Source: Bilabrum cf. latius | Lineage: Eukaryota | NCBI GenBank assembly: GCA_965178125.1 | Contig: OZ237756.1 | Location: 248,001 to 312,000 of the forward strand | Reading direction: 5' to 3' | Length of the DNA stretch: 64,000 bases | In this document: positions 13,845-56,325 of the stretch, piece by piece | Layout: the number at the start of each line of letters is the position of its first letter | Numbering within the stretch: position 1 is the stretch's first letter | Notes under the pieces: model-generated | Seen by the model: only the letters and a program-made list of their open reading frames with translations | Database searches by the model: none | Told to the model about the DNA's origin: nothing | Program-made: the position numbers and the translations under genes

Positions 13845-16800
13845 TCAGCCCATGCCCATAGACGCCAAGGACCTGCATACCTGTTCGGCTACCCTGGATG
13901 CGGGACCACGACCCGAGTCCCGGAGCCCCCTAAGGGGCACAAGCACACCTGCATCTACCACAGACTGCTTCAGGCCATCCTATCCAGCAGCGATATTCCG
14001 AAGCGCCCAGGCCGCCTGCTCTGCCTCCTCGCCCTTGCCCGACCCAAGCAGAGCCACCAGGCCGCCCAACGCACCTGCATCCACCACGGACTGCTTCAGA
14101 CCATCCGATCCAGCTGCGATATTTCGAAGCGACCTAGCCGCTTGCTCTGCTTCTTGACCTTTGCTCGATCCAAGCAGAGCCACCAGACCGCCCAACGCAC
14201 CTGCATCCACCACGGACTGCTTCAGGCCATCTGATCCAGCTGCAATATTCACAAGCGCCCTAGCCGCTTGCTCTGCTTCCTGGCCCTTGCCCGATCCAAG
14301 CAGAGCCACCAGACCGCCCAACGCACCTGCATCCACCACGGACTGCCGCAGGCCATCCGACCCAGCTGCGATATTCACAAGCGCCCTAGCCGCCATCTCT
14401 GCCTCCTGACTTGTGCCCGATCCAAGCAGAGCCACCAGACCAACCAACGCACCTGCATCCACCACGGACTGCTTCAGGCCATCTGATCCAGCTGCAATAT
14501 TCACAAGCGCCCTAGCCGCTTGCTCTGCCTCCTCGCTCTTGCCCGATCCAAGCAGAGCCATCAGACCGCCCAACGCACCTGCACCCACCAAGAACTGCCT
14601 CAGGCCATCCTATCCAGCTGCGATATTCCGAAGTGCCCAGGCCGCCATCTCTGCTTCCTGGCCCTTGCCCGATCCAAGCAGAGCCACCAGACCGCCCAAC
14701 GCTCCTGCACCCACCACGGACTGCCTCAGGTCATCCGATCCAGCTGCGATACTCCGAAGCGCCCTAGCCGCTTGCTCTGCTTCCTGACCCTTGCCCGATC
14801 CAAGCAGAGCCACCAGACCGCCCAACGCACCTGCATCCACCACGGACTGCCTCCGGCCATCCGATCCAGCTGCGATATTTACCAGCGCCATACTCGCCAT
14901 CTCTGCTTCCTGGCCCTTACCCGATCCAAGCAGAGCCACCAGGCCGCCCAACGCACCTGCATCCACCACGGACTGACACAGGCCATCCGATCCAGCTGCG
15001 ATATTCCGAAGTGCCCTAGTCGCTTGCTCTGCTTCCTGGCCCTTGTCCGATCCAAGCAGAGCCACCAGACTGCCCAACGCACCTGCATCCACAACGGCCT
15101 GCCTCCGGCAATCCGATCCAGCTGCGATATTCGCCAGCGCCATATTCGCCATCTCTGCTTCCTGACCCTTGTCTGATCCAAGCAGAGCCACCAGGCCGCC
15201 CAACGCACCTTCATACACCACGGATTGCCTCAGGCCATCTGATCCAACTGTGATGTTCACAAGCGCCCTAGTCGCTTGCTCTGCTTCTTGACCTTTGCTC
15301 GATCCAAGCAGAGCCACAAGACCAACTAACGCACCTGCATCCACCACGGACTGCCTCCGGCCATCCGATCCAGCTGCGATATTCACAAGCGCCCTAGCCG
15401 CTTGCTCTGCTTCCTGACCTTTGCCCGATCCAAGCAGAGCCGCCAGACCGCCCAACGCACCTGCATCCACCACGGACTGTCTCCGGCCATCCGATCCAGC
15501 TGCAATATTCTGAAGCGCCCAGGCCGCCTGCTCTGCTTCCTAACCTTTGCCCGATCCAAGCAGATCTACAAGGCCGCCCAACGCACCTGCATCCACCACG
15601 GCCTGCCTCAGGCCATCCGACCCAGCTGCGATATTCGCAAGCGCAATAGCCGCTTGCTCTGCCTCCTGGCCCTTGCCCGATCCAAGCAGAGCCACCAGAC
15701 CAACCAACGCACCTGCATCCACCACGGACTGACAAAGGCCATCCGATCCAGTTGCGATATTCCGAAGCACCCAGGCCGCTTGCTCTGCTTCCTGACCTTT
15801 GTCCGATCCAAGCAGAGCCACAAGACCAACCAACGCACCTGCATCCACCACGGACTGCCTCAGGTCATCCGACCCAGCTGCGATACTCCGAAGCGCCCAG
15901 GCCGCTTGCTCTGCTTCCTGGCCCTTGCCTGAACCAAGCAGAGCCACCAGACCGCCCAACGCACCTGCATCCACCACGGACTGCCTCCGGCCATCCGATC
16001 CAGCTGCGATATTCCGAAGTGCCCAGGCCGCCATCTCTGCTTCCTGGCCCTTGCCCGATCCAAGCAGAGCCACCAGACCGCCCAACGCACCTGCATCCAC
16101 CACGGACTGACGCAGGACATCGTATCCAGCTGCGATACTCCGAAGCGCCCTAGCCGCCATCTCTGCTTCCTGGCCCTTGTCTGAACCAAGCAGAGCCACA
16201 AGACCAACCAACGCACCTGCATCCACGACGGACTGCCTCCGGCCATCCGATCCAGCTGCAATATTTGCCAGCACCCAGCCCCCGTGCTCTGCTTCCTGGC
16301 CCTTTTCCGATCCAAGCAGAGCCACCAGACCAACCAACGCACCTGCATCCACCACGGACTGACACAGGCCATCCGATCCAGCTGCAATATTCCGAAGCGC
16401 CCTAGCCGCCATCTCGGCCTCCCGGCCCTTGCCCGATCCAAGCAGAGCCACCAGACCGCCCAACGCTCCTGCGACGATGAAAAGTGCCCGAAGCCTGTCG
16501 TTGTCATAACACAGTTGCCAAATTACGAACGCAGCTATTGCTGCTTCCACCTTCTCATTGGATCGAAGCCGACTCGCGAGTTTGGCTACTTCAGTTGGAC
16601 TAGACAGCACATGCTAAGCCAAGGCATCAACTGCATCGATCATCGACTGTTTTGTACTCGCTTGAAAATCGGCCATCGAGTCAATCCCTGATTCTATCCT
16701 CAGCTGCCACAGCACGCGATACAGCCCATCCCAGTCCCCCCTCCTCAGCAGCCCGTCCACAATCTCCCGCACCCTGGCAACTGCAGCCGCGCAATCCTCT

Positions 16801-18179
16801 CCCCCAGCGAGCAATGCAGGCAATAAGGATCGGATGTCTGCTGCAGCTGCAGGCGATACCCCAGATGCCGATTCCGACCGCAGCACATGCACCGCCTCCT
16901 ACACGCCCATCCTGTCTCCCGGACCAATGCACAGCAGGCCGCGCAGCATGTCCGCATACCAACCAGGCCGCTTCGACAGCACATCGTCGCCAGCCAACGG
17001 TACATCACATGTATGCAATTTAGCTGATAGCTCTCCAGGCCTGGTCCTGCTCCCGTCCTGCAGCTCACCAGGATACTAGTCCCCGAACGGGTGCTTCCCT
17101 CCCGTGGCCAGCTCGTGCAGCAGAACGCCCAACTCCCATGATGCCTGCTTCCCGAACGGCACGCATGCATCCATGTCTCCTGCCGCCCCCTTGTTCCACC
17201 CGTCCAGCACTTCAGGGGCCAGGTGGGCCTAGTTGCCGCCCAGCCCGTCACCGCCATCCTTCAGGTACCTGTACGTAACCCGATTCAGAGCTTCATCCAT
17301 TCCAGCACTAGTGGAAGCACCCGGGCCAGCTGATCGTGCGGAACCTTCGAGCACATGAACGCGTAGCGAGCACTCCAGATCGATCAGCACCGCACGACCC
17401 ACGCCCTCCGGACCCCCCTTCGAGTCCCACATCACGTTGTCCAGCTTCAGGTCACGGTGCACCACCCCGTGCTGCAGCAGGTGATGCACGCCCTCCGCGA
17501 TATCTCTGGACAGCTGCACAAGCACATCGTCAGACAGAGACCCCGGCTCATCTCCTTCCACGATCTCCAGATGGTCGCACATGCGTCTCTGCAGCAGCTC
17601 CAAGCCGACCATCTGCGCCTTGCGGGGCCGCAGGGGGGCGGCACCAGCAGAGGACATGCCCTCCCCGTCGACACCAGCAGCAATGCACACCAGGCTCGGA
17701 TCAGGCAGCATCTTCACCATCCACAGGGGAGGCTTGCACACGCACTCAAACAGCACGCGGGCCACGTTGCGGTGCTCGGGCAGGCGAGCGAGCACATCGA
17801 ACTCTTTCTGGGAATCGATGGTTTCGAGCTTGGATGTAGATAGACCCCAGTTGAATACAGTCTTCACCGCAATGTGATCAGGAGTAGCATCCAAACTAGG
17901 ATCACACGGGGCATCATCGGAATGGCCTGTTGGAAGAGCCACACGAAAGACGGCACCGAATCCGCCCTGTCCCAGCATGATACTTCCCTTCGTTGGCTTG
18001 CTGCATGCATCAAGCAGTGGTTTAGCAAATTGGCGCCTCTATACAGATGTGCCGGACTTTGTCATGAGGTACACCTCCATCACGGCGGAAGGAAGATCAG
18101 GTGCGAGAACGGCCTAAGCTGCATGGCTTTGCAAAGCCTCGCTGGCACCAGCGCCGCTGGCTGGACCAGAGGCTGACAT
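13845..18179 (-). CDS. Protein kinase fused to ~20 tandem armadillo repeats (~1444 aa with TAG=Gln, no intron needed)
   Basis: One frame from ATG 18179 to TGA 13845 with TAGs at 18114, 18039, 17229, 17076, 16899, 16614, 15540, 14610, 13980. Kinase motifs LGQGGFGAV, IAVK, HRDLKLDN, GGN[TAG]AHLAPEV, SWELGVLLHEL...HPF. The repeats are 42 aa: VVDAGALGGLVALLGSGKGQEAEQAAWALRNIAAGSDGLRQS. Confidence 0.88.
13930..16470 (-). repeat. 126-bp coding tandem repeat (ARM units), ~20 copies
   Basis: Near-identical 126-bp units visible directly in the DNA. Confidence 0.92.
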
Positions 18180-18433: not shown

Positions 18434-21400
18434 TCACTTACCCACCATGCCGGGCGGTGGCCTGGAGCCACGAGAGGCGAACCACGATGAACGTTCCCTC
18501 GCCATCCGCAGCACCCGCTCAGGCACCCCTGCCATCCCCGCCACCAGCAGACCGTAGCTCCTCACAGATGGCCCGCCCCGCACACGGTACAGGCACGTGA
18601 TGGTCTGCTACTCGCCGTGTGACGACTATCGCGCCATTTCCCCTGTGCTTGCGCTTGTACGAATGGCTACACCGCCATCTACTTCATCACCATCGCCCCC
18701 ATGCTCCTCATCCTCCGGCTCCTCTCGCAAGAATGCCATGTGCACGTTCGCGGCTATCGTGCCCCTGCTCCGGTCCTCCCCGTTGATCCGATCCACAGCC
18801 CCCCACACCTCAGGATAGTGCGTGATGAACAGACAGCAGCACCTCACCCGCACACTCAGATGCCGCAGAGCAGCCACAGCCACAGCCGCTCCATCCGCAG
18901 AGCTCGTGCCCCTCCCCAGCTCGTCCACCACCACCAGCGACCTCCCACCGGCCTCCCTAAGGATGCTCCCCGCCTGGCTGCTCTCCAGATAGAAAGTGCT
19001 CAGCCCCCCCTGAAGATCATCGCTGGCACCCATCCGCGTGTACACCGCATCAAACGGACCCACCACCGCGGACTCGGCAGGCACCCAGCTGCCCACCTGA
19101 GCCATCATGGCCATGAGGGCAGCTCCCTTGGCGTAGCAGCTCTTGCCGCCCATGTTGGGGCCCGTCAGGACCAGACTGCTGGCAGACATGGAAACGTCAC
19201 GAACGCTCCCATCGTCCCCACTGCCAGAATCATCGTCACCATCACCGCCACTTGACAACCCCATCGCGGCGCAGGCAGCGTCCATCGCCCTAACCGCACT
19301 AGTCACACCAGCCTCCCCGATACCACACCCCCGCAGCTCCGCCATTTCCGCCTCCCTATCACTCGAACGCCTCCCCAGGGCCACTGGATTCGGAATCACA
19401 TCCCCCCCAACACCCCCACCTCCACCTCCACCTCCACCCATACCCGACAGTCCCCCGTGGTGACCCGCACCAGCCAGAGCAGAGGCGCGGTACCTGCCCC
19501 CAGCCGCCTCCAGCAGCGGATGCCGCCCCATTGTGACCCAGAGACCCGAAGGCAAGCTAGTCGGCAGGACAATCGGCCTCACGTACCCGGGCAAGCGAGC
19601 CACTTTGCCCAGTGCTGCCAGCACGTCCAGCTCGCCCAGCACGCGCACCCACGCGAGCACGGCAGGCAGCAGATCCCCAGTCAGCTCTCTCACGAGCAGC
19701 CCCCACGCCCTTCTCGCGTGCACGGCAAGTCGCTCCTGCTGCAGTGCCCTCTAGCCCAGCAGGTCCACCACGTCAGGGGAATGGTACCTGACAGAGGCCT
19801 TGGTGGAGCTCACCAGCGACCAGTCCTCAGGCACCAGCCCTGCCGCTTTGCTGGACCGCCGCAGCTCCACCATGTGGGTCAGCGAAGAGGACACGCCCGT
19901 GCGGACGGTCTTCCACTCCAAGGCGGGCATCTTCAGGATGGATCTGGCCTGCTTCAACTCGGAGTCGAAACCCGCCTCAATCTGCGCCAGGGCCGCTCTG
20001 GCCTCCCCTGCCTCTGGGCACAGCCTGGCCTCCACCTCGGGCCTCAGAGCAGACCCTTGAGCTGAAGCAGCGCCTGTACCTCCATCGCGAGAGGCAGCTG
20101 CAGAGGCGCGCATGGAGGCAGCAGCGGCGGGGTTCCATTTCCTGAGGGCACCGGCCTGCCTCTGCTTCTTCTGGAACCATCCCGCACCAGCGGCTGCCTT
20201 GCCCTTCGAACCACCATTGCCCGATGCACTGCCGTGCGGTGCACCCGACAGCCGGGCCAGCAAGTCAGGGTGCAAAGAGTTCCTGACCGCAGCTATCTTG
20301 CCTGCAAGAGCGGGCAGCTGCTGCAGCTACGCCCGCAAGTGGGCAGGCAGCATCGGCCTTGTCGGTGACTAGCCATCATCGGCGGATGCAGATGATGCCG
20401 ATGCCGATGCCGAGGACTCGAATGCGTCACTGCCACCACCACTCCTGCCAACCTTATCCTCATCGTCATCAACACCAATAGCCGTTTGCCGGCTGCTCCC
20501 CCCTTGCCCCAGCCGCCAAGCAGCCCACGGAGCCTCCACTTTTCCAAGCGCTCCAATCAGCCGCAGCAAGGCGGGTGGATCGCAACCACCGCTCTTCAGC
20601 CGCCCCGCCAGCCGCTCCAGATCAACCATCCCGCGCATTGCACCGCACATCTCACCGAGAGGACTCGCCATCGGCTCAGCCGCCATTGCCGCCACACCGT
20701 CCTGCCTCTGCCTCAGCTGCACCGGGTCCTTCAGTGGGGCCATGATGGCCAGCCGAAGCCGCCTCAGCCCAAACGGGGTGCTGCACCGGTTGAGCAATCC
20801 CAGGAGAGACCCGTGTGACGAGCGAGTTGCCTTCCCCTGAAGCAGCTCGAGGTCGGCGGCAGTCTCGCCTGGCAGCAGTGCAGTGCAGTCTGCAGTGCTA
20901 CTGCTACCGGATGCTTTGTCAGGTGCAGCTGCCGATGCAGCTTTCTCCGATGAAGAGGAGCTTGCAGTTGCTGGTAGTGGACGACCGCCTTTCTCCGAGC
21001 TCTTCGCATTCTACCCCTCTCTTTCCATGTCTTGCTCGAAAGCAGCACTGTCTTCCGGGCTCGTCCCAGCGCCACTGGATACTTGCCCTGACCCGGCAAG
21101 GCCAAGCTCCAGGGGATGCACGCACCAATCTGCGGTGGCTTCGCTGCTGCTACTTGTGCCCGTGCCCTCTGCAGCGCTGCTTGAACTAGTAAATGTCCCG
21201 GCACTCGCAGATGCCCCCTCTGGCTGCATGGCTTGCACTGGCCCCAGAACCCTCGCCAGGGGATGCTGAGGCAGCCGGGCGAGGTGCCTGAGAGTTGCAA
21301 TTGTGGAGTGCCTTGCAGCCCATGGCAGGGCCACCATGGACCGAGCCAGCTTCGTCAATGGGGGACGTAGGGCCGGCGGTACATTGACCTCAGATGACAA

Positions 21401-23734
21401 AGACCCTGATGATGCCTGTAGATCTAGTGTCTTCCTCTGTGCACCTATCTACAGTGCGTTCGGATCGGTTGTGCTTGATCCCATTGTGCTACCTCCGGCG
21501 GCATTTGCAGTGATCCTTGCTCTCTTGCGGGATAGAATCCCGCCCTTGCTAGCTTGCCCCGACCGTGACCGTTTCTGGCCCGCACGAGCAGGGCTGGAGG
21601 ATGCAGCATCGTTTGAGGATAGTAACGTGATGCCACCAATATCGGAAGCACCCCCTGCTGGCGACCTGAGCGCAGGCGGCAGCATGCTCCACAGCTCCAG
21701 TAAGAGGCTGCCCAAGTCTGTCTCGCTCTGATCCTCATCCTCTTGGTCTTGCTCTTGTTCTTGCTCTTGCTGTAGATGTGTGGCACTATTCCGAGCCTTG
21801 GAAGATCGGATGTTGCCCTCACTCGCAACCGCACTAACGGGCCAATCGAACATGGAAGAGTGCAGCTCGTGCCCCACGCACCGCACGGTCCCTGCCATCC
21901 CCTGCTGCTCCAGACCACCATCAACCTGACCTGCCGACCCAGGGCCCGCCCCTACCTCTCCATCTCCCCCTTCACCCGCACCCGCACCTGTCCCGTCTCG
22001 CATCGCCCCAAACGCGACGTCTGCATCGTCGTTCTCATACCCCGCCCGCCCCCTCAGCTCCATCCCAGAGAGGCAGCACACCCTCACGCCGGCAGGAGCA
22101 GCCCCGGCTGCGTCACCCAGCGGCATGTCAAGCGTGCCCAGCCCCCCGCTGTTCTCTGCTGCTGTTCCCCCGCCCGCCTCGGCGAGGTGAGCTGCCACGG
22201 CTCGTGATGTGTGACGAGTGCACGCAGCTCCTTTGAATAGGCCTACTACCGGGGCACCTCTCCTACCGCCCTGCCCATTCGCCGAAGTTACCTCGCTTGC
22301 AGGCTGCACCCCCACCGCCCTAAATGCATCCAACGAGACAGTGCCGGCATGCAAGTCAGTCGACTGGGTCGACACTATATCTACCTCTGACGATTCATCG
22401 GACTGCGACGCCCGAACCAGCCCAGTGGCTCCTGCAGGCTGCAGCCCCGCCCCCGCCTGCACCAGCACCTCAGCCGGCTGCATCCTGCTCAGCGCGCTCC
22501 TTAGCCTAGACCTAGAGCCATCGTCCTCGAAGGCGGTAGCGAGTATGAGGCCCGACACCATGTCCACACTCGTCACACCGATATAGCCGGGCTCCGCCTC
22601 CGCCACCACGACGAGCGGCCCGTCCACCTCTGGCTCCAACACATCAGTGCCAATGTCCATGCCTGCCTGTTCCCCGCTATTGCGAGCAATCTCAGTCTCG
22701 TCAGCAAACGAAGACTACACTGCGACCGAACTGCTGGAGCTGGCACTGTTGCTGCTACTGCTGCTGCTGCTGCTGCTGGCATTGCTGGAGCTGGCACTGC
22801 TGCTTGCATTGACTCCTGTTGCGGCTCCGCCTCGGGGCCCCCCCAGACCGGCGGCGGCATCCGATTCGAGCCAGGGAACAAGCGTGCTAGGGGTAAGAAC
22901 CGCCGCAACACCCCTGAGAAAGGGACCCCCCCTGTTGTTCCCCGAGGCTTTGATGGCCGCCGTCTCCGACTACCGGACCAGGCCCACCCGCAGACCAGAG
23001 GCCACAAGTCGCGCAGCGTGTCGGGCCGCCGTGAAGACCGGAACGCTCGCGGTCACAAAGGAGAGGTCAGAGGGCTTGTAGCACCATATGCCCAGCCTGC
23101 GGGCAGCAACCACCGCGCCCGGCCCGAAGAACCGAAACTTGTACCCCGTCTCGACCATGAGCACGAGTCCGGGCCACTGAGCCTACACCGCTGCGACTTG
23201 TTGCTCCCAGGGGGTGAGGCGAGGCGGCCGCTCGAGTGAAGCCGTAGACGCGCCTGGCCTGGATCTGATGCGGCCCGTCACGCCGACCGCTCCTTCGGGC
23301 AGGTCAGTGGGATTGCCGTCCATGAAGGCGAGCACGGCGTCAGAGCGAGGCCGCTGGGCCGACGCGTCAGCAGGTGATGGCCTCGATAAAGGAAGCAAGG
23401 CATGTTTCAGCATCTCGCGGATCTTTGCGTGGTCTATCTCTCGTTTTGTGGCTTGCTCAGCTCGATTGGCTCCTGCCGCGTTCAAGTCATCAACCATGCC
23501 GCCGGCATCCCGATCAGAACCTGAATCGGATACGAGGTCCTCCACATCGTCTACGTCTACTGCGGCCAACCTTTTTGCTGCCTTCTCCTTGGCGGTATCA
23601 CTGCTATGCTTGGTGGATGCAGCTTCCGGTTGCACCTTACGAGCTTGTGCAGCGCGCTTTGCTTTTGCTAGCACCGTTGACGTATCGATAGACGCTGTTC
23701 CCCCAAAGAATGAACTCAAAGAAGACTATTTCAT
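18434..23734 (-). CDS. MSH3: DNA mismatch repair protein MSH3 (MutS family), ~1766 aa with TAG=Gln
   Basis: One frame from ATG 23734 to TGA 18434 with at least 11 TAGs. N-terminal PIP box MK[Q]SSLSSFF; MSH3-type domain I TPWEQQV...LMVETGYKFRFFG...VGLVR[Q]SETAA; TPFGLRRLR; Walker A TGPNMGGKS; Walker B DELGRGTS; FITHY; C-terminal LYRV...SYGLLVAGMAGVP. Confidence 0.9.
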
Positions 23735-24604
23735 GATTCTGTTATCATAGCGTATGCAGTGGCCCTTCTTATTAGACCAGATCTACTCCGCAAAGTCTAG
23801 GCTATGCAGTGCCGTGCAGCAGCGCGGTCGAGGCACGTCATTCATCACTTAACACTTAGCTTTCATGGAGTGCACTGGATTACAATGGTCAGACACGGTG
23901 GGACCTCCTGCTCGCATGATGTCGCACGCGCCGGCATACCTTGCTGGTTTGGAAGCAACCACGCTCCACGGGTGGACCCCGCCCGGGGCATGGGCATCGG
24001 CAGGGAGCGGCATTGAGGTCGATGTCTCCCAAGCTCCAGCGAATCCTACACGAGTCAGTAGTGAACGATCCACAGAATGGCAGGCTGCGAAGGAAGCAGC
24101 CGGGTGACTGGTAGAGGTCTCCGGGGTGCCCGGAGGCGAAGCATCCGATCGATGGAGGTATCGAATTGGGGGGTCCGCCGGGGCTGTGAGGGTTATCTGC
24201 TCAGAGATGGGGGCGGTACGCGGCTTCCAATGATGCTTTCCAGCGCTAGCCCCCTCCAACCAGGCTAGTGTCTTGCAATTCCGCGGAAGACCGGTGCGAG
24301 ACCACTGCCGACATGGGGTGCAGAAGGCGATGGATCGACTATTGCGGAGGGCAGTCGTGGAGCCAAGGGAGCCCGCCGGCGCTCAGTGGCAGAGATCCAA
24401 GGCTACCCGGTTATGGAGGGACGGTTCGGTGCGGTCGAGTCTGCAAATAGTATTTTGGAAGGTCAAAGCTGCACAGGCTCGTTTGGATGCATTTCATTCA
24501 AGATGCCCCCAAGTCGGCTCACCAGACCAACGGCTCCAGCGAAGAAAACCTGTCCCGACTTTTGCACTGCCTCCAGTCGCCCAAGATCCAGGCGACGGAT
24601 TGAC

Positions 24605-28849: not shown

Positions 28850-29041
28850 ATGTCCTCCAAATGCTTGTGCACCTGGCGACTCCAGGCCAGCCGGTGGCAA
28901 CTGATTCCGGTTTGATTGTGGGAGTAAGGTGCTGATTTTGGCTCCAAAACAAGGTCGGGAAATAAATCACCGGATACTTACCAAAGTTCTACCCACCATC
29001 CATAACCTGCCAACAAAAAAGCTCTCCGTGCACCCTATGCT

Positions 29042-30232: not shown

Positions 30233-30419
30233 ACGTCTACTGCGGCCAACCTTTTGCTGCCTTCCCCTTGGCGGTATCACTGCTACTAGTAGGATTGGTG
30301 GATGCAGCTTCCGGTTGCACCTTACGAGCTTGTGCAGCGCGCTTTGCTTTTGCTAGCACCGTTGACGTATCGATAGACGCTGTTCCCCCAAAGAATGAAC
30401 TCAAAGAAGACTATTTCAT
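30233..30419 (-). pseudogene. Truncated copy of MSH3 5' end
   Basis: ATG AAA TAG TCT TCT TTG AGT TCA TTC TTT... matches 23734 onward, then has indels and joins unrelated sequence. Confidence 0.75.
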
Positions 30420-31282
30420 GATTCTGTTATCATAGCGTATGCAGTGGCCCTTCTTGTTAGCTAGACCAGATCTACTCCGCAAAGTCTAGGCTATGCAGTG
30501 CCGTGCAGCAGCGCGGTCGAGGCACGGCGTAACGTCACTTAGCTTTCGTGGAGTGCACAGGATTACAATGGCCAGACACAGTGGGACCTCTTGCTCGCAT
30601 GATATCGCACGCGGCGGCAGACCTTGCTGGTTTGGAAGCAATCGCGCTCCACGGGTGGACCCCGCCGGGGGCATGGGCATCGGCAGGGAGCGGCATTGAG
30701 GTCGATGTCTCCCAAGCTCCAGCGAATCCTACACGAGTCAGTAGTGAACGATCCACAGAATGGCAGGCTGCGAAGGAAGCAGCCGGGTGACTGGTGGAGG
30801 TCTCCGGGGTGCCCGGAGGCGAAGCATCCGATCGGTGGATGGATCGAATCGGTGGATCCGCTGTGGCTGTGAGGATTTTCTGCTCGGAGATGGGCGTGGC
30901 ACGCGGCCTCCAATGAGGCTTACCAGCGATAGCCCCCTCCAACCAGGCTAGTGTCTTGCGATCCTACGGAAGTTCGGCGCGAGACCACTGCCGACATGGG
31001 GTGCAGAAGGCGATGGATCGATTATTGCGGATGGGAGGCGTGGGGCCAAGGGGGCCCGCCGGCGCTCAGCGGCGGAGATCCATGGCTGCCTGGATGGAGG
31101 GACGGTTCGGTGCGGTCGACTCTGCAAATAGTATTTTGGAAGGTCAAAGCTGCACAGGCTCGTTTGGATGCATTTCATTCAAGATGCCCCCAAGTCGGCT
31201 CACCAGACCAACGGCTCCAGCGAACAAAACCTGTCCCGACTTTGGCACTGCTTCCAGTCCGAAATCCAGGTGACGGATTCAC

Positions 31283-34200: not shown

Positions 34201-35419
34201 TCATGTCCAGCACGGCGTATCGGTACACAACGGGGCCTCCGCTCTCCTCCCGCACCCTGACCTCCTCGATCGGGTTGCCGGTGGGTCCGAATCGGGGGGA
34301 AGTGTACCCGAGCACTGTGGGCTCGCCGCTGGGGACGAACTGCGGCGGCGTTGACTTCGTCAATGAGGTCATGTTGAATATCTCCCTCGAGTCACCGACC
34401 ACGGTGTACACGGCGTTGGCGGCCGCGGAAGCCGTGGCTGCTCTCGAGCCAAACGACGTCGACATGACCCAGCCGTCGGCGCTGAAGGAGTAGCACGCTA
34501 TCTTGGCCTATCTAGAGAGGCTGTAGCATACGAAATCACCTGCTGACCACGCAGTGGTCACACCAGCGTTCTATGTGGAGTCGGCCGGGCCGGGGTTGAG
34601 GTCGGCGCCCCCCAAAGCGAAGACCTTGCCGTAGGTCGTGTTGTCGTTCGGGTCCCGCATGTCCACATAGGCGGGCTCTTTCCCGCTCCCGACGTCAAAC
34701 GTTATGCATGCCCGCCCGTCCTTTGCGTAGCCAAAGCTCGAGAACAGACCATCCGGGGTGGGTCCGTACACGTCGTCGATATACTTGATCTGGCTGCCAC
34801 TCGGCAATCTGAAATCAAGGCAGGCCATCTGGTAGTCCGCGCCGTCATTAGCCTTGTTGACTACGCATATCACGTCGTCTGAAAGCCACGAGCCCCGGAA
34901 CTCCAGCAGAGAGGGGGGCTCCTGCGGATCGAACGGGTGCGTCCCTGGAGGCGCACTTGGGAAGCTGCCTTCCCCCATCGTGTTCTGGCCGACAACATGC
35001 ACCCGGTACGGAGTCTCCGTCACGTTCACGATGATCCACTCGATCTTACCGTCGATAAAGGCGCTGGTTGAAAGGAGGTTCCCGTCTGGTGACAGAAACT
35101 GGTACGCATCCCGCTGATTGTTCCAGTACCCGCTTTGCGGCCCCGGCGCGAACTCGATAGGAACCACACTCACGTTCCCGGCCGCCTCGCATGATGCAGA
35201 ATACAACTCATACCCAATTTCGCGCCCGCCATATGCCTGAAGAGTGGCGCCAGAAGGGCTGGCTCTGAATAGGCGCGGCTATCCGCCTCGCCGGTTGGGG
35301 TTGGTATCCGTGACCTCCACGCTCAATAAGCGGCCTGAAGTAGGCGTAGCCCCCAGATTATTACCATTGGCTATACTAGCAGTGATAAAAGCCGACAGAG
35401 CAGCGAAAATCGTGTACAT
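31283..35419 (-). CDS. Single-pass cell-surface protein, copy B
   Basis: Paralogue of 24605-28849 in one frame with TAGs at 35279, 34571, 34508, 34091, 32918; 4x ITSSPSTSPTPS; same TM; ends TGA. Confidence 0.82.
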
Positions 35420-35611
35420 ATGTCCTCCAAATGCTTGTGCACCTGGCGACTCCGGGCCAGCCGGTGGCAACTGATTCCGGTTTGATTGTGGGAGTAAGGT
35501 GCTGATTTTGGCTCCAAAACAAGGTCGGGAAATAAATCACCGGATACTTACCAAAGTTCTACCCACCATCCATAACCTGCCAACAAAAAAGCTCTCCGTG
35601 CACCCTATGCT

Positions 35612-39711: not shown

Positions 39712-39981
39712 CGTGAGGCGCACCACGAACGAGCTCTTTCCGTGTAACCTGCGATATCCGGAATCCGGATGCAACCAATGACAATCAGGAGCAGGATTGG
39801 TGCCAAGAGCTCGATCCATTCAGGTCCGTCCGTGGTACCAGCTACTAAAAGCATGCGAAAATACTTAAATCAGATCCACAAGAAACTCCGTACGAAATTC
39901 TACAACACGATGGCAACCAGGACCGGAGCGTGGATCTCAGGGAAAAGAGTCCGGGTAGACGAGTCGAGCCATTACGCAACC

Positions 39982-42900
39982 TTACCGCCCCCCACCCACG
40001 GCCGCCCCATCCCCAAGCCCGTCCAGTCCATACCTCTCGGCCCCATCCTCGCCGCTGTAGTCGCCTCCGTGTAGGTCTCCCTCCGGGTAGGGGTTGCCCT
40101 CGGTGGCCCCGCCCCCGCCTTCCTCGTTCGCACCCGGCATAATGTTGTAGTCGTCGTCGAAGGCGGGCTGCCCCACTGCCCAGACCTCCACGGCATCGCA
40201 GTCGAACACGTCCCTCCCGGCCAAAAAAGTCTCCGCGTCCTCCGAGCTCGGCCTGAGTCCGATCCCGAAGGAGTTCTCCACCCTCGAGCTGCACGCCTTG
40301 AAGTCTCCACGGAGCACGAGGTCGCCCACCCCGAACTGGAGGAACTCAGTGCTGCACCTCTGCGTGTCGTGTCTCTAGTAGGGCCTCTTCCTCGGCTGCG
40401 GGCGCATGTAGACGGACAGGTCATAGTCATTGGGGTTATCGAGGACCTCCCCGTCCTCCCCAAACACAACGTCGTTCTGCTGGGCATCGTGGAACGCGTT
40501 GATCCTGTCCTCGTTCCACTGCGCGATAATCTGGTCCTGCATCTGCTCGTGCTGCTCCCGCTTTGCCGCGTCGATCGAGGGCTGCGGCGGGCCGCGGACC
40601 CTCCCAAGGAAGGGGATGCGGCAGGTGCGCGTGACGGAGAATAGGAAGCAGGACGGGTCACCATAGTAGTGGCCGTCGAACTGCCACCCGCTCGAAGCGA
40701 ACCCTCCGAACTTGTGGGCGCCGGACTTGATGATCACCACCGTGGGCTGCCCCGGGGCCATGCGGCTGTAGAGGTCTTGGAACGTCTCAAGGTTGGCGGG
40801 CGAGTGCAGCGCCGTGCTGAATACCAGCGAGGTGGTGGGCGGCCTGGCGTACTCCTGCTGCTGCCTCAGGTTGCCCTGGTCGTCCATGAAGTCGGGCCCC
40901 GAGGTGTTGGGCATGCACAGGTAGAGGAACCTGGCCTCCTCTTTGGACAGGATCTGCGTGCCCGGGAATGCCACCGCCTCGATCCCGTGTTCCCTGATCT
41001 CCGCAGGCAGCTGCTTCTCCTTGCGGGCAGCATACCCGATCAGAGAGTTCTTCTCGATTAGGTTCGCCTGGTACCCCCTCGGGTCCCTGGAGGGTGACGC
41101 GGCTGCGCTGCTGCTGACCCGGGACTTGAGTTTCGAGGCGGAAAGCGAGCTGTTGGCGCTGCTGGGGCCGTTGGCGCCGTCCTCATCCCCCCCGTTGGAC
41201 TTGCTCTCGGTGGCCCCGCCCCCCGCACCGCTGGCGGGACCGCGGACAGCAGAGGATGCCCCGGCAGCACCAGCACCAGACTACATCCCGGTGCCCTTGC
41301 CCGAGCCGCTGCCCTGCACGGCCACGGGCTGTGGCGGCAGGCTCCTGTGCTGCACCGGCTGTGCCCTGGCGGCCTCTGGGTCTCCGCCAGCCGCATCCAC
41401 GGCCCGCTCGTATGTGAGCTTCGCGTCGAATACGGCCCTCTTCTGCTCGTCTACCGCGTTGCGCCCCAGGTGCTGCTGCTCGGGCGGGAGCCTCCTCGTC
41501 ATGGCCGTCACTTCCTCCAGCTTGGCTTCCTGCGAGCGGAGATGCGCGCGGGCCTCTGACAGCTCATCCGCGGCCCCAACGGGCCTGCCGCGATGCCGCA
41601 CCGCATCCGTGAGAGCGTCCACGGCAGATCCCCCGAGCCCGGCACTGGTACCCTGACCCCTGGCCTTGCTCTCGCTCCCGCGCATGGACGCGGGCGTGCC
41701 CTCCAGGTCGGCACCTCCGTCCCTGGAGGGAGTGGCAGGCACCATGGCTCTGCTCGCGGCGCTGTCCACCGTGCGCCCCATCCCCATGTACCTGTCTCGC
41801 GCAGCGGCAGCGGCCGCAGAGGAGGAGGCTCCGCCCCTGCCCCCTCCCATGCCCCCCGCGGCGGCATCCAGGTCGCCCTCCGCCACGACGTCCACATCGC
41901 CGAGCACCTTGATGTCTGGCTGCACCGCCACAGCAGAGAGCGCGTCCTTGATGCCTCCTCCTCCGCCCGACTGCGCGTAGAGCTCCGTCCTCATGCGGCC
42001 GTGCGCCTGCCATGCGTCCACAAAGGCAGTGGGTTGCAGGTGGTCCTGGATCACCGGCACGAACTGCTCCGCCCACTCGATGGACAGCTGCTGCCGCCTC
42101 AGCTCTAACTCCTCCGCGAGCAGCACGTACGTCTTCTGTTTGGTGAGCTGGTCAAGTTTGTCGATGACCTGCTTATGCTTCTCGCAGATCTGGCGGTACA
42201 CGGCCTCGCTGTTGTCCTGGATGGCCTTGAGCTTCCCCTCGATGGACCGGATGCCCTCTCCGATCGACCTCTTCCTCTCCTCCAGCATGGGATCGGGCCT
42301 CGCGCTCTCGTTCAACGCGCCCTCGTACTTGGATGTCAGGTCCCCCAGCATGGAGTTGGCGGCATCGCCCATGGCGGGGCCCAGGACGGACAGTGCCTGC
42401 CTCACCTGCGCCTGCACCTGCTCCACCCTCTCCCGGAACCGGGCCTGCCTCTCCGCCAGAGGGGCGTCGGCGGCGGGCCCCGACAGGCGATCCGCCTGTG
42501 AGAACTTGAAGTGCACCACGTACTGGGGGAGCGCCTGCGCCGACTCGAAGACTACGTACTCCTGCTGGGCCTGCCTGACGCCCACCCCGGGCCCCGCCTC
42601 ATCGCCCTCCTCCTCGTCCCTATGCACGTACAGGGAATCATACCCCTGGGGGAGCTTGCGCTCGCCTTTTTCATCCACGAGAGGAAATGCCCGCCCCACG
42701 GCCACCCTGCAGAGCAGGAACTGGTGCTTCTCCCCCCCGCTGGGGTCGAGATCGATGGCCCCTGTCTTAAAGGGGACGCCCGCGCCGTCCTCGGGGACGG
42801 CAAAGCCGCGGCCGCACACGTCCTGCACTCGCTGGTTGGGGGCGCGCAGTTTCTTGATGTCTACCCAGGAGTCGAGCTGCAGCAGGCCGTGGGACCGGCG

Positions 42901-43432
42901 TCCAAACGTCACGTTGAGCGTGGGATTGTCGACGCTCCAGATGTGCACGTCGCGGACATTGACGCCACGGAGATTAAGCTGCGGTACAGGAGACTTAAGA
43001 TACATTTCTTTCGCTTGGTCTTAGCCGAGAGAGTAACGGGCTTGATTTGGCAACAAACACAGCCACAATGCTCGTCCACCAGGCAACGCTGGAGTGCTAA
43101 CTGGACACTCTGCATGGCTCGCCGAGCTCATCGCACTTGCTTCTGCTCTGTTCACGAAACCCTACATATCGGAGGCCCAAGCAGCAGCGGGCTAGCGCAA
43201 GCACTCTTGCTGCCACCCAGCGCCCAGCCTGCCAGGCCCAACGACAACCGCAGAAATGCATCACAACGGAGCTTAAACCACGACATATCCCAGATATCTC
43301 ACCTGAAGGTTATACAATATTCTCTTATACTATTCTTGGGTCTCCAATAGGCGCGTTACAGGCGGTCCTGACGACATTGGAGCCTACTTTGTTCGGGCTC
43401 GCACCCACAGACTCGCGCGAAGTGATCTTCAT
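39982..43432 (-). CDS. PARP-catalytic-like N-terminal domain + coiled coil + C-terminal TLDc domain; exons 43432-43388, 43329-43303, 42978-39982
   Basis: ART/PARP-like motifs FLLCRVAVGRAF, PQGYDSLY, EYVVFESAQALPQYVVHF. TLDc motifs VVIIKSGAHKFGGFA, YYGDPSCFLFS, FLAGRDVFDCDAVEVWAV. The TLDc domain is split by TAG 40375, with another TAG at 41281; ends TAA at 39982. The small 5' exons are inferred from GT-AG sites and phase. Confidence 0.78.
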
Positions 43433-43773
43433 CTTTGAAATTTCAACGGTTGTAACCAATCCATCGAATCCAGTTGCCTTTTGTGGATACTTATGCAGCC
43501 ATCAAGGCTACATTTTGAAACATCGTGGTATGATTGCATAATTGGTATCAATGTAAACTGTCTTAGATCAGGGACACGCCAAATAATGCATAGCGGAGAG
43601 CATATTTCGCCCTACAAAGTCTGCGGACAGGAGAGTTTCATTTCGCGGTGATCCGGATGGAGGGTACAGCCGGCGCTACTATCGAAGCCACTATCTCGTT
43701 TAGAATAGAAAAAGCCTGCTGCTCGACGAAGCCATTGCTTTAATATTTATATCATCTAGCTAAATCTTGTGGA

Positions 43774-46292
43774 ATGTTGGTTTTGTTCGAGACTCCCGCG
43801 GGGTACGCCCTATTCAAAGTGATGGACGACGGCAAGCTGAAGTCCACCGACACCATCCAGCAGCAGTTTGAGTCTGTTGGAAAGGCAGCATCATTGTGAG
43901 TTATTTAATTCCTGTGTGTGGTTCCCCCTGCTATTATTGGCGGGCAGTCGGCTGTCAGCTGGCTCGCAGCAGATCGTTTCCGATGTGTACTCGAGGGACC
44001 TTGCCATTGCTAAGCGATTCCATCCGATCGGCACATCATCGTAACTCATCAATATCTTCATCAATGCAGCGTGAAACTGGCTGCATTCAAGCAGTTCAGG
44101 AGCACGGCGGAGGCAACCGCCGCCGCCGCTTGCATGGTCGACCAGACCCTGCACGACGATTTGCGCAAGTTCCTCAAGAAGAACATCGCGAAGCGAGGAC
44201 TCGACGACGAGCTCGCCGTCCTTGATTCCAAAATCGGCGGCCTGATCAAGAGCAAGCTGGACATCCAGTGCATCTCGGACGCCCGGGTGCAGGTCCTCTT
44301 CAGGGGCATCAGGGAGCACCTGACTTCCCTCGTGGACGGCCTCGAGCCCAAGCAGCTGCACAGCATGATGCTCGGTCTGGGCCACTCCCTCAGTCGGTAC
44401 AAGCTCAAGTTCAGCCCCGACAAGGTGGACACGATGGTGGTGCAGGCCATCTCGCTGCTGGACGACCTAGACAAGGAGATCAACACGTACGCCATGAGGG
44501 TCAAGGAGTGGTTCTCCTGGCACTTCCCCGAGATGGCCAAGATCGTCAAGGACAACTACCAGTACACCCGCTGCGTGCAGCGCATGAAGGTGCGCACAGC
44601 CGCCGCTGCCCTCGATTTCTCTGACATCCTCGAGGATGACGGCATCGAGAAGGCGCTCAAGGAGGCGGCCGTGCTCTCCATGGGGACTGATATCGCAGAG
44701 GATGACGTGGAGAGCATCCAGGTGCTCGGTGACCAGGTGAGGTGCTTTTGGTTTCGATGCTTGCTGTGGGTTTTTTCTGCTTGGCTTTGCTTGGCTTGGC
44801 TTGAGCGTGCTGTCCCTCCCGTCCCGCGGCCCCTCCCCATTCCCTGTTTCGCGATGCCGCCCGCTGCACCCCGCCCTCTGATGACACGAACCACTTTTTA
44901 TACCAAGATCTGCACCGAGCGGCTCCAACCGCGATGGCGAGACGTGGATCAAGTCTGAGGGCAAGCAGCATGGTTCGATTTTGGATCAGGTTTGGATTGG
45001 ATGAGATGAATGGGTTGTTGAGAGCGCTTGCACTTATGGATTGGATGAGATGAATGGGTTGTTGAGAGCGCTTGCACTTATGGATTGGATGAGATGAATG
45101 GGTTGTTGAGAGCGCTTGCACTTATGGATTGGATGAGATGAATGGGTTGTTGAGAGCGCTTGCACTTATGGATTGGATGAGATGAATGGGTTGTTGAGAG
45201 CGCTTGCACGTATGGATTGGATGAGATGAATGGGTTGTTGAGAGCGCTTGCACGTATGGATTGGATGAGATGAATGGGTTGTTGAGAGCGCTTGCACGTA
45301 TGGATTGGATGAGATGAATGGGTTGTTGAGAGCGCTTGCACGTATGGATTGGATGAGATGAATGGGTTGTTGAGAGCGCTTGCACGTATGGATTGGATGA
45401 GATGAATGGGTTGTTGAGAGCGCTTGCACTTATGGATTGGATGAGATGAATGGGTTGTTGAGAGCGCTTGCACTTATGTGTCCACCCACCCACCCCATGT
45501 ACCTCCGTTTGCTCGTCACACCTGATCCCATTCCCTCTCGCGCAGGTGATCCAGCTGATGGAGTTCCGCACCACCCTCAACGACTACCTCCGGAAGCGCA
45601 TGCAGGCCATCGCCCCCAACCTGACGGTGATGGTGGGCGAGCTAGTGGGGGCCCGCCTCATCGCCCACGCCGGCTCGCTCATGAACCTGGCCAAGCAGCC
45701 CGCGTCCACTGTGCAGATCCTGGGGGCAGAGAAGGCCCTCTTTAGGGCCCTAAAGACCAAGCACGACACCCCCAAGTACGGTCTCATCTTCCACGCATCG
45801 CTGGTTGGACAGTCCGCCCCCAAGAACAAGGGCAAGATCTCCAGGGTGCTCGCGGCCAAGACCGCCCTGGCGGTGCGCGTGGATGCCCTCGGAGACACCA
45901 CGGAGCCCACGGTGGGTCTCGAGGGTCGTGAGAAGGTCGAGGCCCGGCTCAGCGAGCTGGAGGGGGGGCGTGCCCTCAAGCTGGCGGGGGGTGCTGTGGC
46001 GAGGGCGAGGACGGAGGCGTACCAGGCGGGGTCTTCGGGTGCACCAGGGTACAACGCGGCGGCTGACATGATGATGAGCGATTCCGCGTCGTCTTCTTCG
46101 TCTGCCGCGGCTGCTTCTGCCGCCCCTGTGGCGGGCAAGAAGAGGCGAAGGAGCGAGGATGCTGGTGATTCCGGGGCTAAGGAAGACGGCAGCAGCAGCG
46201 GGGAGGAGCGACCTGCGAAGAAGAGCAAGAAGGAGAAAAAGGAGAAAAAAGAAAAGAAGGAGAAAAAGTCCAAGAAGAGCAAGAAGGAGTGA
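43774..46292 (+). CDS. NOP58: Nucleolar protein 58 (box C/D snoRNP); exons 43774-43895, 44070-44736, 45546-46292
   Basis: [81 protein letters not shown] tail; GT-AG introns in phase; ends TGA. Confidence 0.95.
44873..44962 (+). ncRNA. Candidate intronic box C/D snoRNA in NOP58 intron 2
   Basis: Box C TGATGA at 44879-84, box D CTGA at 44955-58, terminal stem GCCC/GGGC. The internal ACCAAGATCTGCAC is complementary to conserved LSU rRNA GUGCAGAUCUUGGU and ends at a CCGA (D'-like) box. Confidence 0.72.
44993..45478. repeat. 44-bp intronic minisatellite, ~11 copies
   Basis: Unit tatggattggatgagatgaatgggttgttgagagcgcttgcac(t/g), directly abutting, no spacers. Confidence 0.95.
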
Positions 46293-51807: not shown

Positions 51808-54800
51808 TCACGTCGGTTCGCTGCCAGGAGGTGACTCGCTGCCCGTCTCAAAGGGCTTGGCGACTCCAAGAGCCTTCTGCGTTTGCTTGGAGGCTTCCGT
51901 ACCATTGGAATCCGCCATGGTCTTGGCACGGTCAAGGTCTACTGGTTGAGATCCCCGATCTGCATCTCGGACGCTCTGCCCGCCGATCGTGTTGTTCTGT
52001 AGAACTTCACCCTTTGAGCCGCGGCTAGACCACATGGGAGACTGTCCCTGCAGGGCATGCATGCCTGCCGGCCCGGGCTTAGCGTTGCCAGGAGCGGTCG
52101 ACACCTTGCCGCTTCCCTGACTGGAGCTCTTTGGTCCCTGTACTGGGCCAGAAGCTTGTCGGCGGTGCTCCATGGCCTCCTCCTCAGTGTCCACCAGTCC
52201 GCTTCGTCCACACAGCCACTCCACCTTTGGGCCAAGCACCTTCTCAAACATAGTGAAAGCAGATGTAAACCCGCCAAGGATACCCACAGTGAGACCCACG
52301 ATCGATGAGGCCACCTGAGCCAAGGTGTAGGCTGGCGTGATGTTTGTCGTGGCAAACACTCCCGCTTGCGACATCTGAATGCTGAGCCTCGTCACTGTGG
52401 TGGCTGGATCGATGGCATCGACAGATCGAGTCGTTGTCGCCCCGCTGCGCAGGTCTTGCACCCTGAACCCCTCCACGCTCCTGGCGCTTCCAGCCCTCGT
52501 GTCATCCAGCACGTGACCGACGAACGCCACCTGCTCGGATCGAGCATCCAGCATCTCTTGCAGGTGCACCGTGGCGTTCGAAGTGAGTGGGTCAGCTGAT
52601 GGAGACACTGCAGTGCCGCTCACACTGGACCAGCGGCCTCCCGCGTCTTGCGTGGCCAGCCGCCAGCCGATCGCCTGCACAGCCCAATGGGTGTCGATGT
52701 CAAGCACGGTGACGGCAGTCAGGCCGCAGTCGTCACACGTGGCACGAAGCCAGCACAGAGGCCGATCGAGCTGCTGACCATCCGATGGTAGTTCCTGCAC
52801 GGTGGCAGTGGCTGCCAGTTGCAGCATCGAATGCGCTGGGGCATCCCTGGGTAGTTGCTCTGCAGACAGCGACGCGCGGCCAGAGCTCACAGTGAGAAGG
52901 TACGACTCACTGCAGGGTGCCAGGGAGGTCGGAGACAGCACGGCATCCAGCACCACGTTACTCTTCGCCGATGCAGCTCGGACAGCACCGGAGGCCCCCG
53001 CCGTGGCCACCTGCAGCCCATCCGTGGTGATGGAGTTGCGATAGGCGAAATCGAGTACAAGGGTAGTGGATGATGTCAGTGCCACCAGCACGGCCATGAC
53101 GGTGAACCATCCACCCGTTGCCGTGGTGATCCTCCTGACTGCGGCATACTCGACGGGCTTGTGCGCCTGCGCCATGCTGTCGATCATGCGCAGTCCCGTA
53201 TGCATCGTTGGCCGCACTGATGGTACTAGCAGCAGGAGCAGTAGCACGCAGAGCACGCACGTCGTCACAATCCATGCGATAATGTCGACATCGGATCCAC
53301 CCTCATCATCGGTGCCTCCATCGCTGGCCGGATCCGGTTCATCTGCAGGTGCCTCCTCTGCCCCGCTGGACTAGTCGTCTTGCATCGGCTCTTGCAGGCG
53401 CCGTGCAGCCAACCCGCCTGCTCTGAGCGCTGCCACGACCTTGGGGTCAACAACCGATTGTGGATCCACCCGCAATCGCCTGCTGGATCCACCCGAGCTG
53501 TAGCTGCTAGTCGCAGCACTAGCAAATGCATCTTCATCATTCCCAGGCAAGGGGACACCTGCCAAGGATTCCTGGATCACAGCCAGAGCAGGCACAGGCT
53601 CAGGCACACCGGGCAGGCACATGGTGCCAGGATCACTGCATGTTGGCGGATGATCAACGCACTCGTTGGTGCTTGAATCGAGAATGGCATCTCCTGGGCA
53701 CCCCGAGCACAATGCCGAGCCACTGTCACTGCGCAGGCCGGCCCCGCATCGAATGCAGCTGGATGTGAGGGCAGCACCAGGACTTGGCATGTACGTGCCT
53801 GACGGACACTCAGAGCATGCAAATGACCCGATCTTGTAGACAGACGCGGTGCCCGGCTTGCATGTCTCGCAGGACTGCACGTTGCCGCCGGCAGAAGAAG
53901 TGCCCGGCAAGCATGGCTCGCAATTCTGCCCTGCCATCCCACCAGGGCAAGAGACCACCACTGCAATGCAGTCGAGAGCAGTAGACGTTCCAGTCCCGAC
54001 TGTTGTGGTCCCATCGGGGCACTGCAGGCACGTTGATGACGAAGCGGCCAGCACGGCTTCGCTGTAGGTGCCCTTGGGACAATCGCTCTTCTGCAAGCCA
54101 TCCTCGCAGTAGGTACCTGCAGGGCACTTCACGCACATGATTTCGGTCGTTGCACTGCCGAGTATCTCCACGGGCGCTTTGTAGGTGCCGGGATTGCACT
54201 GCGCTCCTACGCTGTCCGAGATATTGACTCCCTGTAGCTTGAACAGGTTGGCAAATGCCTAGGCGTGCGAAGTCTCGATCGGGTTGTTCTACAAATTCAG
54301 ATGCTCCATGGCATTGTTGGCAGCAAAGGACAGCTGGGCCAGGTACTTGAAGCCGTTACCACTCAAGTCTACGGTTCGAACATTAACAAGAGGCGAGAGA
54401 GCGCCGTCTACGAGGTGGAACGACTGCTCACCAGAGGACCCCGCAACGCGGAGAGAAGAAAGTGCAGGAAGCCCAGCGAACGTCGCTTCGGTCCACGCAG
54501 ACCGACGCAGGTCCAAGCCTTGCAGATCCAACGACCGCAGTGTGCTCGCAAATGCACAGTCACGGAATCCATCGAGAGCCAGGTCTTGTGTTTTGCCAAA
54601 TGTGCGCTAGGCCCCCGGGGCCTCGATAGACAGCGAAGCCAGAAGATCGAGACCATCAAAGAATCCACAAGTCCCGTTCTCGACAGTAAAATCAGCTCCA
54701 AGGGTCAATTGTATCTCGGTCAGATCTCCAAGGTGCTGGAGCAGGCCAGTTGGCCCTGATTGCAGCATCGGAGCAACAAGCTCAAGACGGCCAGGACTGC

Positions 54801-56325
54801 CGTGTGCTCCAACAAATGCGTCTTGGTGCAGGTGCTGCAGCCCGGGTGCCTAGATACGTACTCGCTAGGACGACATCGAGCCTTCGAAGAGACCCGCCCC
54901 TCCATCCTACATGCTCGATGGCAGCGCGATGGACGTCAGGCCCGTCAGCCCACGCAGCGCACCAGCCTCAAGACTCGACACCTGCGTCATGGACAGGTCC
55001 AGCGACTGCAGGCCGGATGGACCCGATCCGTCCTGGCCCGATGTGAACGCGTCTGGCTCGATGGTGCTGATACTCGGGGGCAGACTGATCTCTACGAGTG
55101 TTCCATTGTCAGTTCCCAGACTGTGCTGCGTGATTGCAGTCAGGTCGGTGCACCTTGAAAGGTCGATGGAACGCAGCCTCGGGGCACCGCTAGCAAAATT
55201 CGCAGGCAGCTCATTAAGCCCAGCCGGCAGGACGATAGTGCTTAGTTGCTCCCAACCAGCTAGGACTGGCACCTCCGGTGCAGCAGGCCAGGGCGCGTCG
55301 ATCTAAGCGCCCGACAAGTCTAGGGTAGTGACATCAACATCTGGCAAGATTGTATCCAACCTTACAGATGGTGGGCGGCACATAACGGAAGCACTCCACG
55401 CCTGTACGCTCGATGGAGGGCTAGACTAGGACGAAGAGTCAGACCCAAAGCAGTGCATCTTGCCAGTGCCTGCCTCGATCCCGCACGTGTGCTCATCGCC
55501 CGCAGACACGGCGACCCACGCCTGCACGCTCGATGGAGGGCTAGACTAGGACTAAGAGTCAGACCCGAAGCAGTGCATCTTGCCAGTGCCTGCCTCGATG
55601 CCACACGTGTGCTATCCACCGGCAGATACAGCGGCCCACGCCTGCACGCTTGATGGAGGGCTAGACTTTTGGGGGTGCTAGTCATCCCCGAAGCAGTGCA
55701 TCTTGCGTGTGCCTGCTTCGATCCCACACGTATGATATGGGCCCGCAGACACGGCAGACCATGCCTGTACGCTCGATGGAGGGCTAGACTAGGACTACAT
55801 ATTGGACCCAAAGCAGTGCATATTACCGGTACCTGCCTCGATGCCGCACGTGTGTGAATAGCCCGCCGACACGGCAGACCACTCCTACACGCTCGATGGA
55901 GGACTGGACTAAACGAAGGACCCGAAACAGTGCATCTTGCCGGTGCCTGCCTCGATCCCGCACGTGTGCGATCCGCCCGCAGACACGGCAGACCATGCCT
56001 GCACGCTCGATGGAGGGCTAGACTAGGACGAAGAGTCGTCTCCGAAGCAGTGCAGCTTCCTAGTGTCAGCCTCGATGCCGCACGTGTGTGAATAGCCCGC
56101 AGACACTGCAGACCATGCCAGCACGCTCGATGGAGGGCTAGACTAGGACCAAGTGTCTCCGCCGAAGCAGTGCATATTACCGGTGCCTGCCTCGATGCCA
56201 CACGTGTGCGAGGTTCCTGCCATTTCAAGCAAGGTACGTTCGTGGTAATCCTTGCACCAGTCGTTTCCCATTGAGCGGTCAACAGCAAGAAGTGCTGCAA
56301 CCAGAAATGGAGTATGCAATCGCAT
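51808..56325 (-). CDS. Membrane receptor-like protein copy A: signal peptide, ~7 RCC1/BLIP-II-like repeats, LRRs, Cys-rich (TNFR/GCC-like) repeats, multi-TM C-terminal region (~1505 aa)
   Basis: One frame from ATG 56325 to TGA 51808 broken only by TAGs. Repeats WSAVSAGxxHTCGIEAGTGKMHCFG; LRR LQSLDLSMTQVSSL, VDLSGNGF, LNL[TAG]NNPIE; CxxCPxGTY repeats; hydrophobic helices. Confidence 0.82.

Follow-up and report, generated by a model that had tools for sequence, protein, structure and literature searches.

Does the TAA triplet that closes a gene for a TLDc-domain protein in Bilabrum cf. latius end translation, in a genome whose genes carry in-frame TAG, or is it a splice donor in a gene where both codons are read as glutamine (Gln)? 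The gene lies in a stretch of 64,000 nucleotides (nt), hereafter the window (assembly GCA_965178125.1, contig OZ237756.1; G000:C22:248001-312000, where G000 is the assembly). Reassignments of UAA and UAG are almost always coupled; the handful of exceptions are known from organisms not in culture, from transcriptomes or from incomplete assemblies. An earlier reading, made from the letters of the window (the sequence-only reading), had proposed that the two codons are decoupled here, with TGA as the dominant stop. It had named Iotanema and some ciliates as rare cases of UAG-only reassignment, which matches the relevant parts of PMC5304391 and PMC11687900. We find that the nuclear code very probably reads UAG as Gln and keeps UAA and UGA as stops, the type of NCBI table 15. 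The whole assembly comprises 48.6 Mb in 111 contigs, with 60% guanine plus cytosine (GC); in the window region genes are long and introns few.

The TLDc gene and the TAA at 39982

The following features of the gene were recognised (positions in the window).

39982..39984, minus strand: TAA ending the TLDc gene, probably as a stop; its context, CG followed by GTAAGG, is donor-like
39982..42978, minus strand: main exon, with a match to Pfam PF07534, two in-frame TAG and no TAA; from about 40051 on it lies within RNA-like contigs
42979..43302, minus strand: intron of 324 nt, GT..AG, its joint present in three RNA-like runs
43303..43377, minus strand: first exon; its ATG is probable, and a single TAG stands in frame at 43330-43332

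The frame and its TAA end were as the sequence-only reading had given them, but the exon upstream of the intron had been missed. The joint of this intron was absent from run X4, where the stretch is contiguous. The plus strand reads TTA at 39982-39984, hence TAA on the minus strand, in the context CGG TAA GG. Past this codon, the score of a Markov coding model (see below) fell from 0.36 to -0.34. The RNA-like contigs came from three runs of two studies, their RNA status being guessed by the tool and none being recorded as RNA. In all three runs they stopped at 40051-40056, about 70 nt before the TAA, with neither a loose end nor a joint at that place; positions 39806-40050 were uncovered and give no evidence either way on the TAA. 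Since GTAAGT, GTAAGC and GTGAG are among the donors of this genome, GTAAGG at 39982 is still a candidate donor. We regard this TAA as probably a true stop. Since the codon is ambiguous by itself, being donor-like and lying beyond the RNA-like contigs, the code was tested on a genome scale.

G tracts are present on the minus strand just before the TAA (window 39985-40030). A G-quadruplex is possible there and, speculatively, might account for the contig ends near 40051.

UAA and UAG in genes

A tally of 15 closed frames of the window gave 14 TGA ends and a single TAA end, that of the TLDc gene. Together with an open frame at 60450, these frames contain 78 TAG, 136 CAA, 433 CAG and no TAA, in line with the in-frame TAG without TAA of the sequence-only reading; were TAA a sense codon, 24.5 would be expected (P=2e-11). 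Selection was by hand, and the set includes last exons as well as frames with no Pfam match. Circularity does not explain the lack of TAA, because a setting with TGA as the only stop yields the same frames.

The larger sample covered 694 kb, made up of the window and its flanks, Prp8, eight blocks of 50 kb and 20 dispersed pieces of 10 kb. All frames without mutual overlap that TGA alone delimits and that run to 700 codons or more were taken, 89 in total, and their central halves, 66,542 codons, were counted. They held 342 TAG, 526 CAA and 2166 CAG but only one TAA, versus about 83 expected for a sense codon when TAG is scaled by CAA/CAG (P=7e-35). The decoupling of the two codons was thereby borne out, and GC bias, a caveat of the sequence-only reading, failed as the cause of TAA rarity. 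The Markov coding model was trained on this same sample and scored the sequence downstream of a codon. The score was 0.27 after TAG (n=141) and 0.29 after CAA (n=201), -0.04 after TGA (n=67) and -0.09 after TAA (n=6); it was below 0.12 after all six TAA, versus 17 of the 141 TAG. TGA made up 67 of the 73 scored frame ends and TAA the other six (about 8%; 95% interval 3-17%), three of which are donor-like (GTAAG), and some ends may be intron read-through.

Genes with recognisable ends were then read. Histone H4 terminates TLYGFGG-TAA in both copies read, with TAA as codon 104, close to the 102-103 amino acids (aa) of most common H4 chains in the PDB. The cytosolic Hsp70 terminates DEVD-TAA, EEVD being the Hsp70 end motif, and eRF1 terminates DFI-TAA, with DFI the most frequent final tripeptide among its homologues (42 of 110). 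At the terminal TAA of these three genes no GT donor is present, in agreement with the proposal that terminal TAA is a real stop. Further TAA ends were found in H2A, Rpl24, a second Hsp70-family gene and a WD40 gene. TAA and TGA also replace one another at the same gene end: the eRF1 of a metagenomic relative (L135) ends DFI-TGA, and one H3 ends RGERS-TAA, three other H3 loci RGERS-TGA. The 19 genes with recognisable ends, a hand-picked set weighted to highly expressed genes, gave eight TAA, 11 TGA and no TAG. The TGA ends were those of three H3 loci, two H2B, mitochondrial Hsp70, BiP, PDI and a MANF-like gene (both KDEL-TGA), Prp8 and Nop58; UAA ends were common in histone and chaperone genes. 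UAA is a stop excluded from coding interiors, and UGA terminates.

Pattern searches for gene ends stayed at chance level, with nine matches versus 14 in the control for EEVD-stop and 19 versus 25 for xDEL-stop. Eleven of the EEVD/xDEL matches were read, and two proved real ends, both KDEL-TGA. As a separate observation, histone H4, H2A and H3 genes (L227, L230) have a conserved motif in common, which lies about 50-60 nt past the stop and is a candidate 3'-processing signal.

UAG is an internal sense codon, and alignments point to Gln as its meaning, at few conserved sites and with two exceptions in leucine (Leu) columns given below. For one TAG of eRF1, 115 of 117 homologues have Q in the aligned column. 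A TAG of an MSH3-like gene in the window aligns to the Gln of KQTET in human MSH3, and one of methylmalonyl-CoA mutase to the Gln of FQTP, where two human entries have Q and one other has A.

18434..23845, minus strand: MSH3-like gene with 12 in-frame TAG, no TAA and a TGA stop
22970..22972, minus strand: TAG at the Gln of human MSH3 VVKQTETAA, by alignment

In alignments of paralogues, the differing partners of TAG were Gln (9), Ser (3), Lys (2), Glu (2) and Leu (2), counts that are few and not independent. A Prp8 fragment that is 99% identical has Q opposite a TAG of the assembly, and the L135 eRF1 has TAG opposite CAG. The share of TAG among Gln codons was flat, 8.8-9.5% at every distance up to the stop, and there is therefore no sign of a context-dependent stop code. 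The L135 gene (metagenome contig, positions 1-1299) encodes the eRF1 of a relative with 82% nucleotide and 92% protein identity. It has one in-frame TAG, and internal TAG was seen in it only, among 30 parsed eRF1 loci of 80. With such a relative, the code may span a whole clade.

Decoding factors and alternative readings

The sequence-only reading had predicted a CUA transfer RNA (tRNA), and one gene for it is present.

G000:C23:907607-907679, minus strand: nuclear tRNA with CUA anticodon, normal cloverleaf and short variable loop

Its D-arm motif is common to the Gln(UUG) and Glu tRNAs of the same genome, in which Gln(UUG) and Gln(CUG) genes are both present. An Rfam search, in which 63 of 780 candidates were scored, and three patterns yielded no UUA tRNA; intron-bearing or odd tRNAs would escape these searches. 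The last pattern was controlled by its recovery of the CUA gene, and two TTA matches that it also gave, both unexplained, did not fold as UUA tRNAs; the first anticodon-arm pattern gave four matches, all non-tRNA. ARAGORN detected no tRNA in the window. The CUA tRNA is not nearest to Gln, and we therefore infer its charging with Gln from the codon data; the parts of PMC9976931 available hold no eukaryotic Gln identity set applicable to it. Such a tRNA would read UAG and not UAA, since C34 cannot pair with A.

A single eRF1 gene was found, along with a pelota-like gene. Residues are given in human numbering (yeast plus 3). Inspection of the N-domain, which the sequence-only reading had advised, revealed unusual changes, S60V, L69Q, N129S and K130H among them, with the GTS motif kept. 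The protein retains G31-T32-S33 (GTS), E55, NIKS, S70, V71, Y125, C127 and F131. The changes A27T, G29A, N30D, I35V, S60V and K130H occurred in none of 110 homologues, L69Q in three and N129S in 11. In yeast, L69A, at a position connected with third-base G, raises UAG readthrough slightly more than that of the other stops (PMC4381064), and positions 55, 125 and 129 have been linked to third-base G, only N129P being UAG-selective (PMC3632111). The changes L69Q, N129S, K130H, S60V, G29A/N30D and I35V, near the third-base pocket, may weaken UAG recognition and could have led to its loss, and the intact GTS, E55, S70 and V71 would preserve recognition of UAA and UGA.

Several observations weigh against UAG=Gln with UAA as a stop. 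A donor-like GTAA context is present at four of the eight TAA ends (H2A, Rpl24, the second Hsp70-family gene and H3), and the tRNA searches were incomplete, two patterns having missed the known Gln(CUG) gene. The CUA tRNA matches tRNA-Tyr at 50 of 75 positions and Gln(UUG) and Glu at 49 of 75 each, so that Gln is not singled out. The TAG at position 69 of eRF1 stands in a Leu column (111 of 117 with L, four with Q), as does a TAG of BiP (L in 4 of the 4 shown). Other TAG sites lie opposite N/S, D/E, E, A/I, L, H and P, which are varied and mostly polar, and none of three TAG columns in a Prp8 profile search was a conserved Gln (H/N/S, P, S/F). Finally, seven of 141 TAG were followed by non-coding-like sequence (P=0.017 versus CAA+CAG, P=0.40 versus CAA).

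The donor-like contexts, at the TLDc TAA and at three of the six scored TAA ends, and the incomplete tRNA search are what an ordinary code with UAA and UAG both as Gln (UAR=Gln, table 6) could draw upon, TAA being rare from GC bias and the TLDc TAA being a splice donor. We give this reading almost no credence, given the single TAA where about 83 were expected, the donor-free TAA ends of H4, Hsp70 and eRF1 and the interchange of TAA and TGA at the eRF1 and H3 ends. Furthermore, among 36 TAA-ending candidates read under table 6 no Pfam match ran across the TAA, although only five had any match and the scan, with many antisense frames, was mostly uninformative. UAG might instead be ambiguous, mostly Gln yet still terminating a few genes through residual eRF1 activity, which would suit the seven low scores after TAG and the retention of T32, E55 and Y125. 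This is improbable: TAG stood at none of the 19 recognisable ends and is not depleted near stops, low scores follow it at a rate like that of CAA, and EEVD-TAG and xDEL-TAG matches were internal or due to chance. Assignment of UAG to another residue, either Leu as in the rhizarian exLh or Tyr or Glu, is very improbable. The Leu columns of eRF1 and BiP, one IMDH site and a CUA tRNA resembling tRNA-Tyr as much as tRNA-Gln speak for it, but TAG occupies near-invariant Gln sites and interchanges with CAG/CAA among paralogues and relatives, the short variable loop of the CUA tRNA is unlike the long-arm Ser tRNA of this genome, and the nearest eRF1 in the tree described below likewise has Q69.

Among the other tRNAs, both nuclear tRNA-Ile seen have a GAU anticodon (L011, G000:C32:91173-91245; L086, G000:C4:952092-952164). 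Most eukaryotes use AAU for tRNA-Ile; the Ala and Thr tRNAs here use AGC and AGT, and as the set is incomplete an AAU Ile gene may exist. A group of AT-rich nuclear tRNA-Met genes (L025, L080, L083, L089-L091), on several contigs, has a body near-identical to that of the adjacent tRNA-Pro(UGG).

The host, its other features and known codes

Other genes of the window included the following.

13845..18179, minus strand: kinase-ARM repeat gene (Pfam) with nine TAG, no TAA and a TGA stop
51808..56325, minus strand: RCC1/leucine-rich repeat membrane protein gene with 19 TAG, no TAA and a TGA stop; paralogue at 60450-63998
43705..46292, plus strand: Nop58 gene of three exons with a TGA stop, used as a lineage marker

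The second intron of Nop58 (window 44741-45539, about 800 nt) contains about three copies of a unit of about 132 nt. A tandem duplication at window 23268-28966 and 30222-35536 comprises two paralogues coding for a membrane protein of 1400 aa, the one copy that was scanned having no Pfam match, and the MSH3 5' end is partly duplicated near window 30200-30700. Elsewhere, a motif of about 30 nt is common to eight places with unrelated upstream flanks, and may be the terminus of a mobile element.

G000 C2:1623394, C6:1427078, C11:377713, C15:1046754, C19:54576, C25:254043, C37:355552 and C41:106240: motif of about 30 nt

Named matches of Nop58 were chiefly oomycetes and brown algae (stramenopiles), plus some haptophytes, with no named bicosoecid among the top 120 Nop58 or Cox1 matches. 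Neither these matches nor cluster look-ups gave a close relative by name. In a quick, midpoint-rooted tree of 112 eRF1 rows, eRF1 fell in an 11-row group that includes Bicosoecida sp. CB-2014 (support of 99 in the Shimodaira-Hasegawa-like approximate likelihood ratio test, SH-aLRT), on a long branch (0.72). This one gene tree suggests, not firmly, that the host is a bicosoecid-like stramenopile. Contig C111 is an AT-rich mitogenome of 38.4 kb with UGA=Trp and a UCA tRNA. The bicosoecids Cafeteria roenbergensis and Cafileria marina likewise have mitochondrial UGA=Trp with a UCA tRNA, and the mitogenome of Cafileria is of similar size, 42.8 kb (PMC6723347). The text available on these two species in that paper contains no nuclear code change, in contrast to UAG=Gln here. 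The main 18S ribosomal RNA (rRNA; L046, G000:C12:950271-951970) is divergent and short (1700 nt), in a tandem array of about 10 copies. A second 18S rRNA (L045, G000:C95:6099-7900), on a contig of 17.9 kb and with 79% identity to the C12 array, probably belongs to another eukaryote in the culture. We take it to be dinoflagellate-like.

For annotation the consequences are direct: most long genes would be cut short under table 1, and histones, Hsp70 and eRF1 would be extended in error under table 6. One assembly holds the code, a candidate tRNA and eRF1, which makes third-base discrimination directly testable.

Published systems are compared here from the parts of the cited texts that were available. 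Iotanema spirale shares the code: UAG is Gln, and the stops are UAA and UGA. Its stops, however, are UAA in 104 and UGA in 15 genes whereas UGA dominates here, its eRF1 carries T32G whereas GTS is intact here, and its CUA tRNA was predicted but unseen, whereas one is present in this genome (PMC5304391). The ciliates Hartmannula sinica, Trochilia petrani and Protocruzia tuzeti also use table 15, with TAG evenly spread; the phyllopharyngeans, a lineage different from the present host, end 86.9-98.3% of genes with UAA, and in neither H. sinica nor T. petrani does the text report a suppressor CUA tRNA (PMC11687900). UAG alone was reassigned, to a different residue, in the rhizarian exLh and the TARA phyllopharyngeans (Leu) and in Scotinosphaera (Ser). 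In exLh, UAA ends 56 of 71 genes (PMC5304391, PMC11687900) and eRF1 has L69A, the position altered to Q here. In the table 6 codes of Tetrahymena, ulvophytes and hexamitids a CUA tRNA also reads UAG as Gln, but UAA is Gln as well and a UUA tRNA exists, whereas UAA terminates here (PMC11687900).

Wherever these two sources give the stop use of a UAG-only code, UAA is dominant (PMC5304391, PMC11687900), and it has been argued that its use by nearly all genes locks UAA in as a stop (PMC11687900). The present genome puts that argument to the test, as most of its genes do without a UAA stop. No nuclear code change in a stramenopile was found in the literature searched by listings and abstracts, nor in the available text of the review PMC11412368, most subscription papers and supplements being outside the scope. 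The code is apparently a new and independent instance of the rare table 15, distinguished by a CUA tRNA in hand and by UGA as the main stop. On balance, we favour the combined view that it is the first nuclear code change in a stramenopile, the first UAG=Gln-only organism with CUA tRNA and eRF1 both in the genome and the first such code with UGA as main stop, that UAA, at less than one fifth of ends, could mark a step before UAR=Gln, and that the code may cover a clade.
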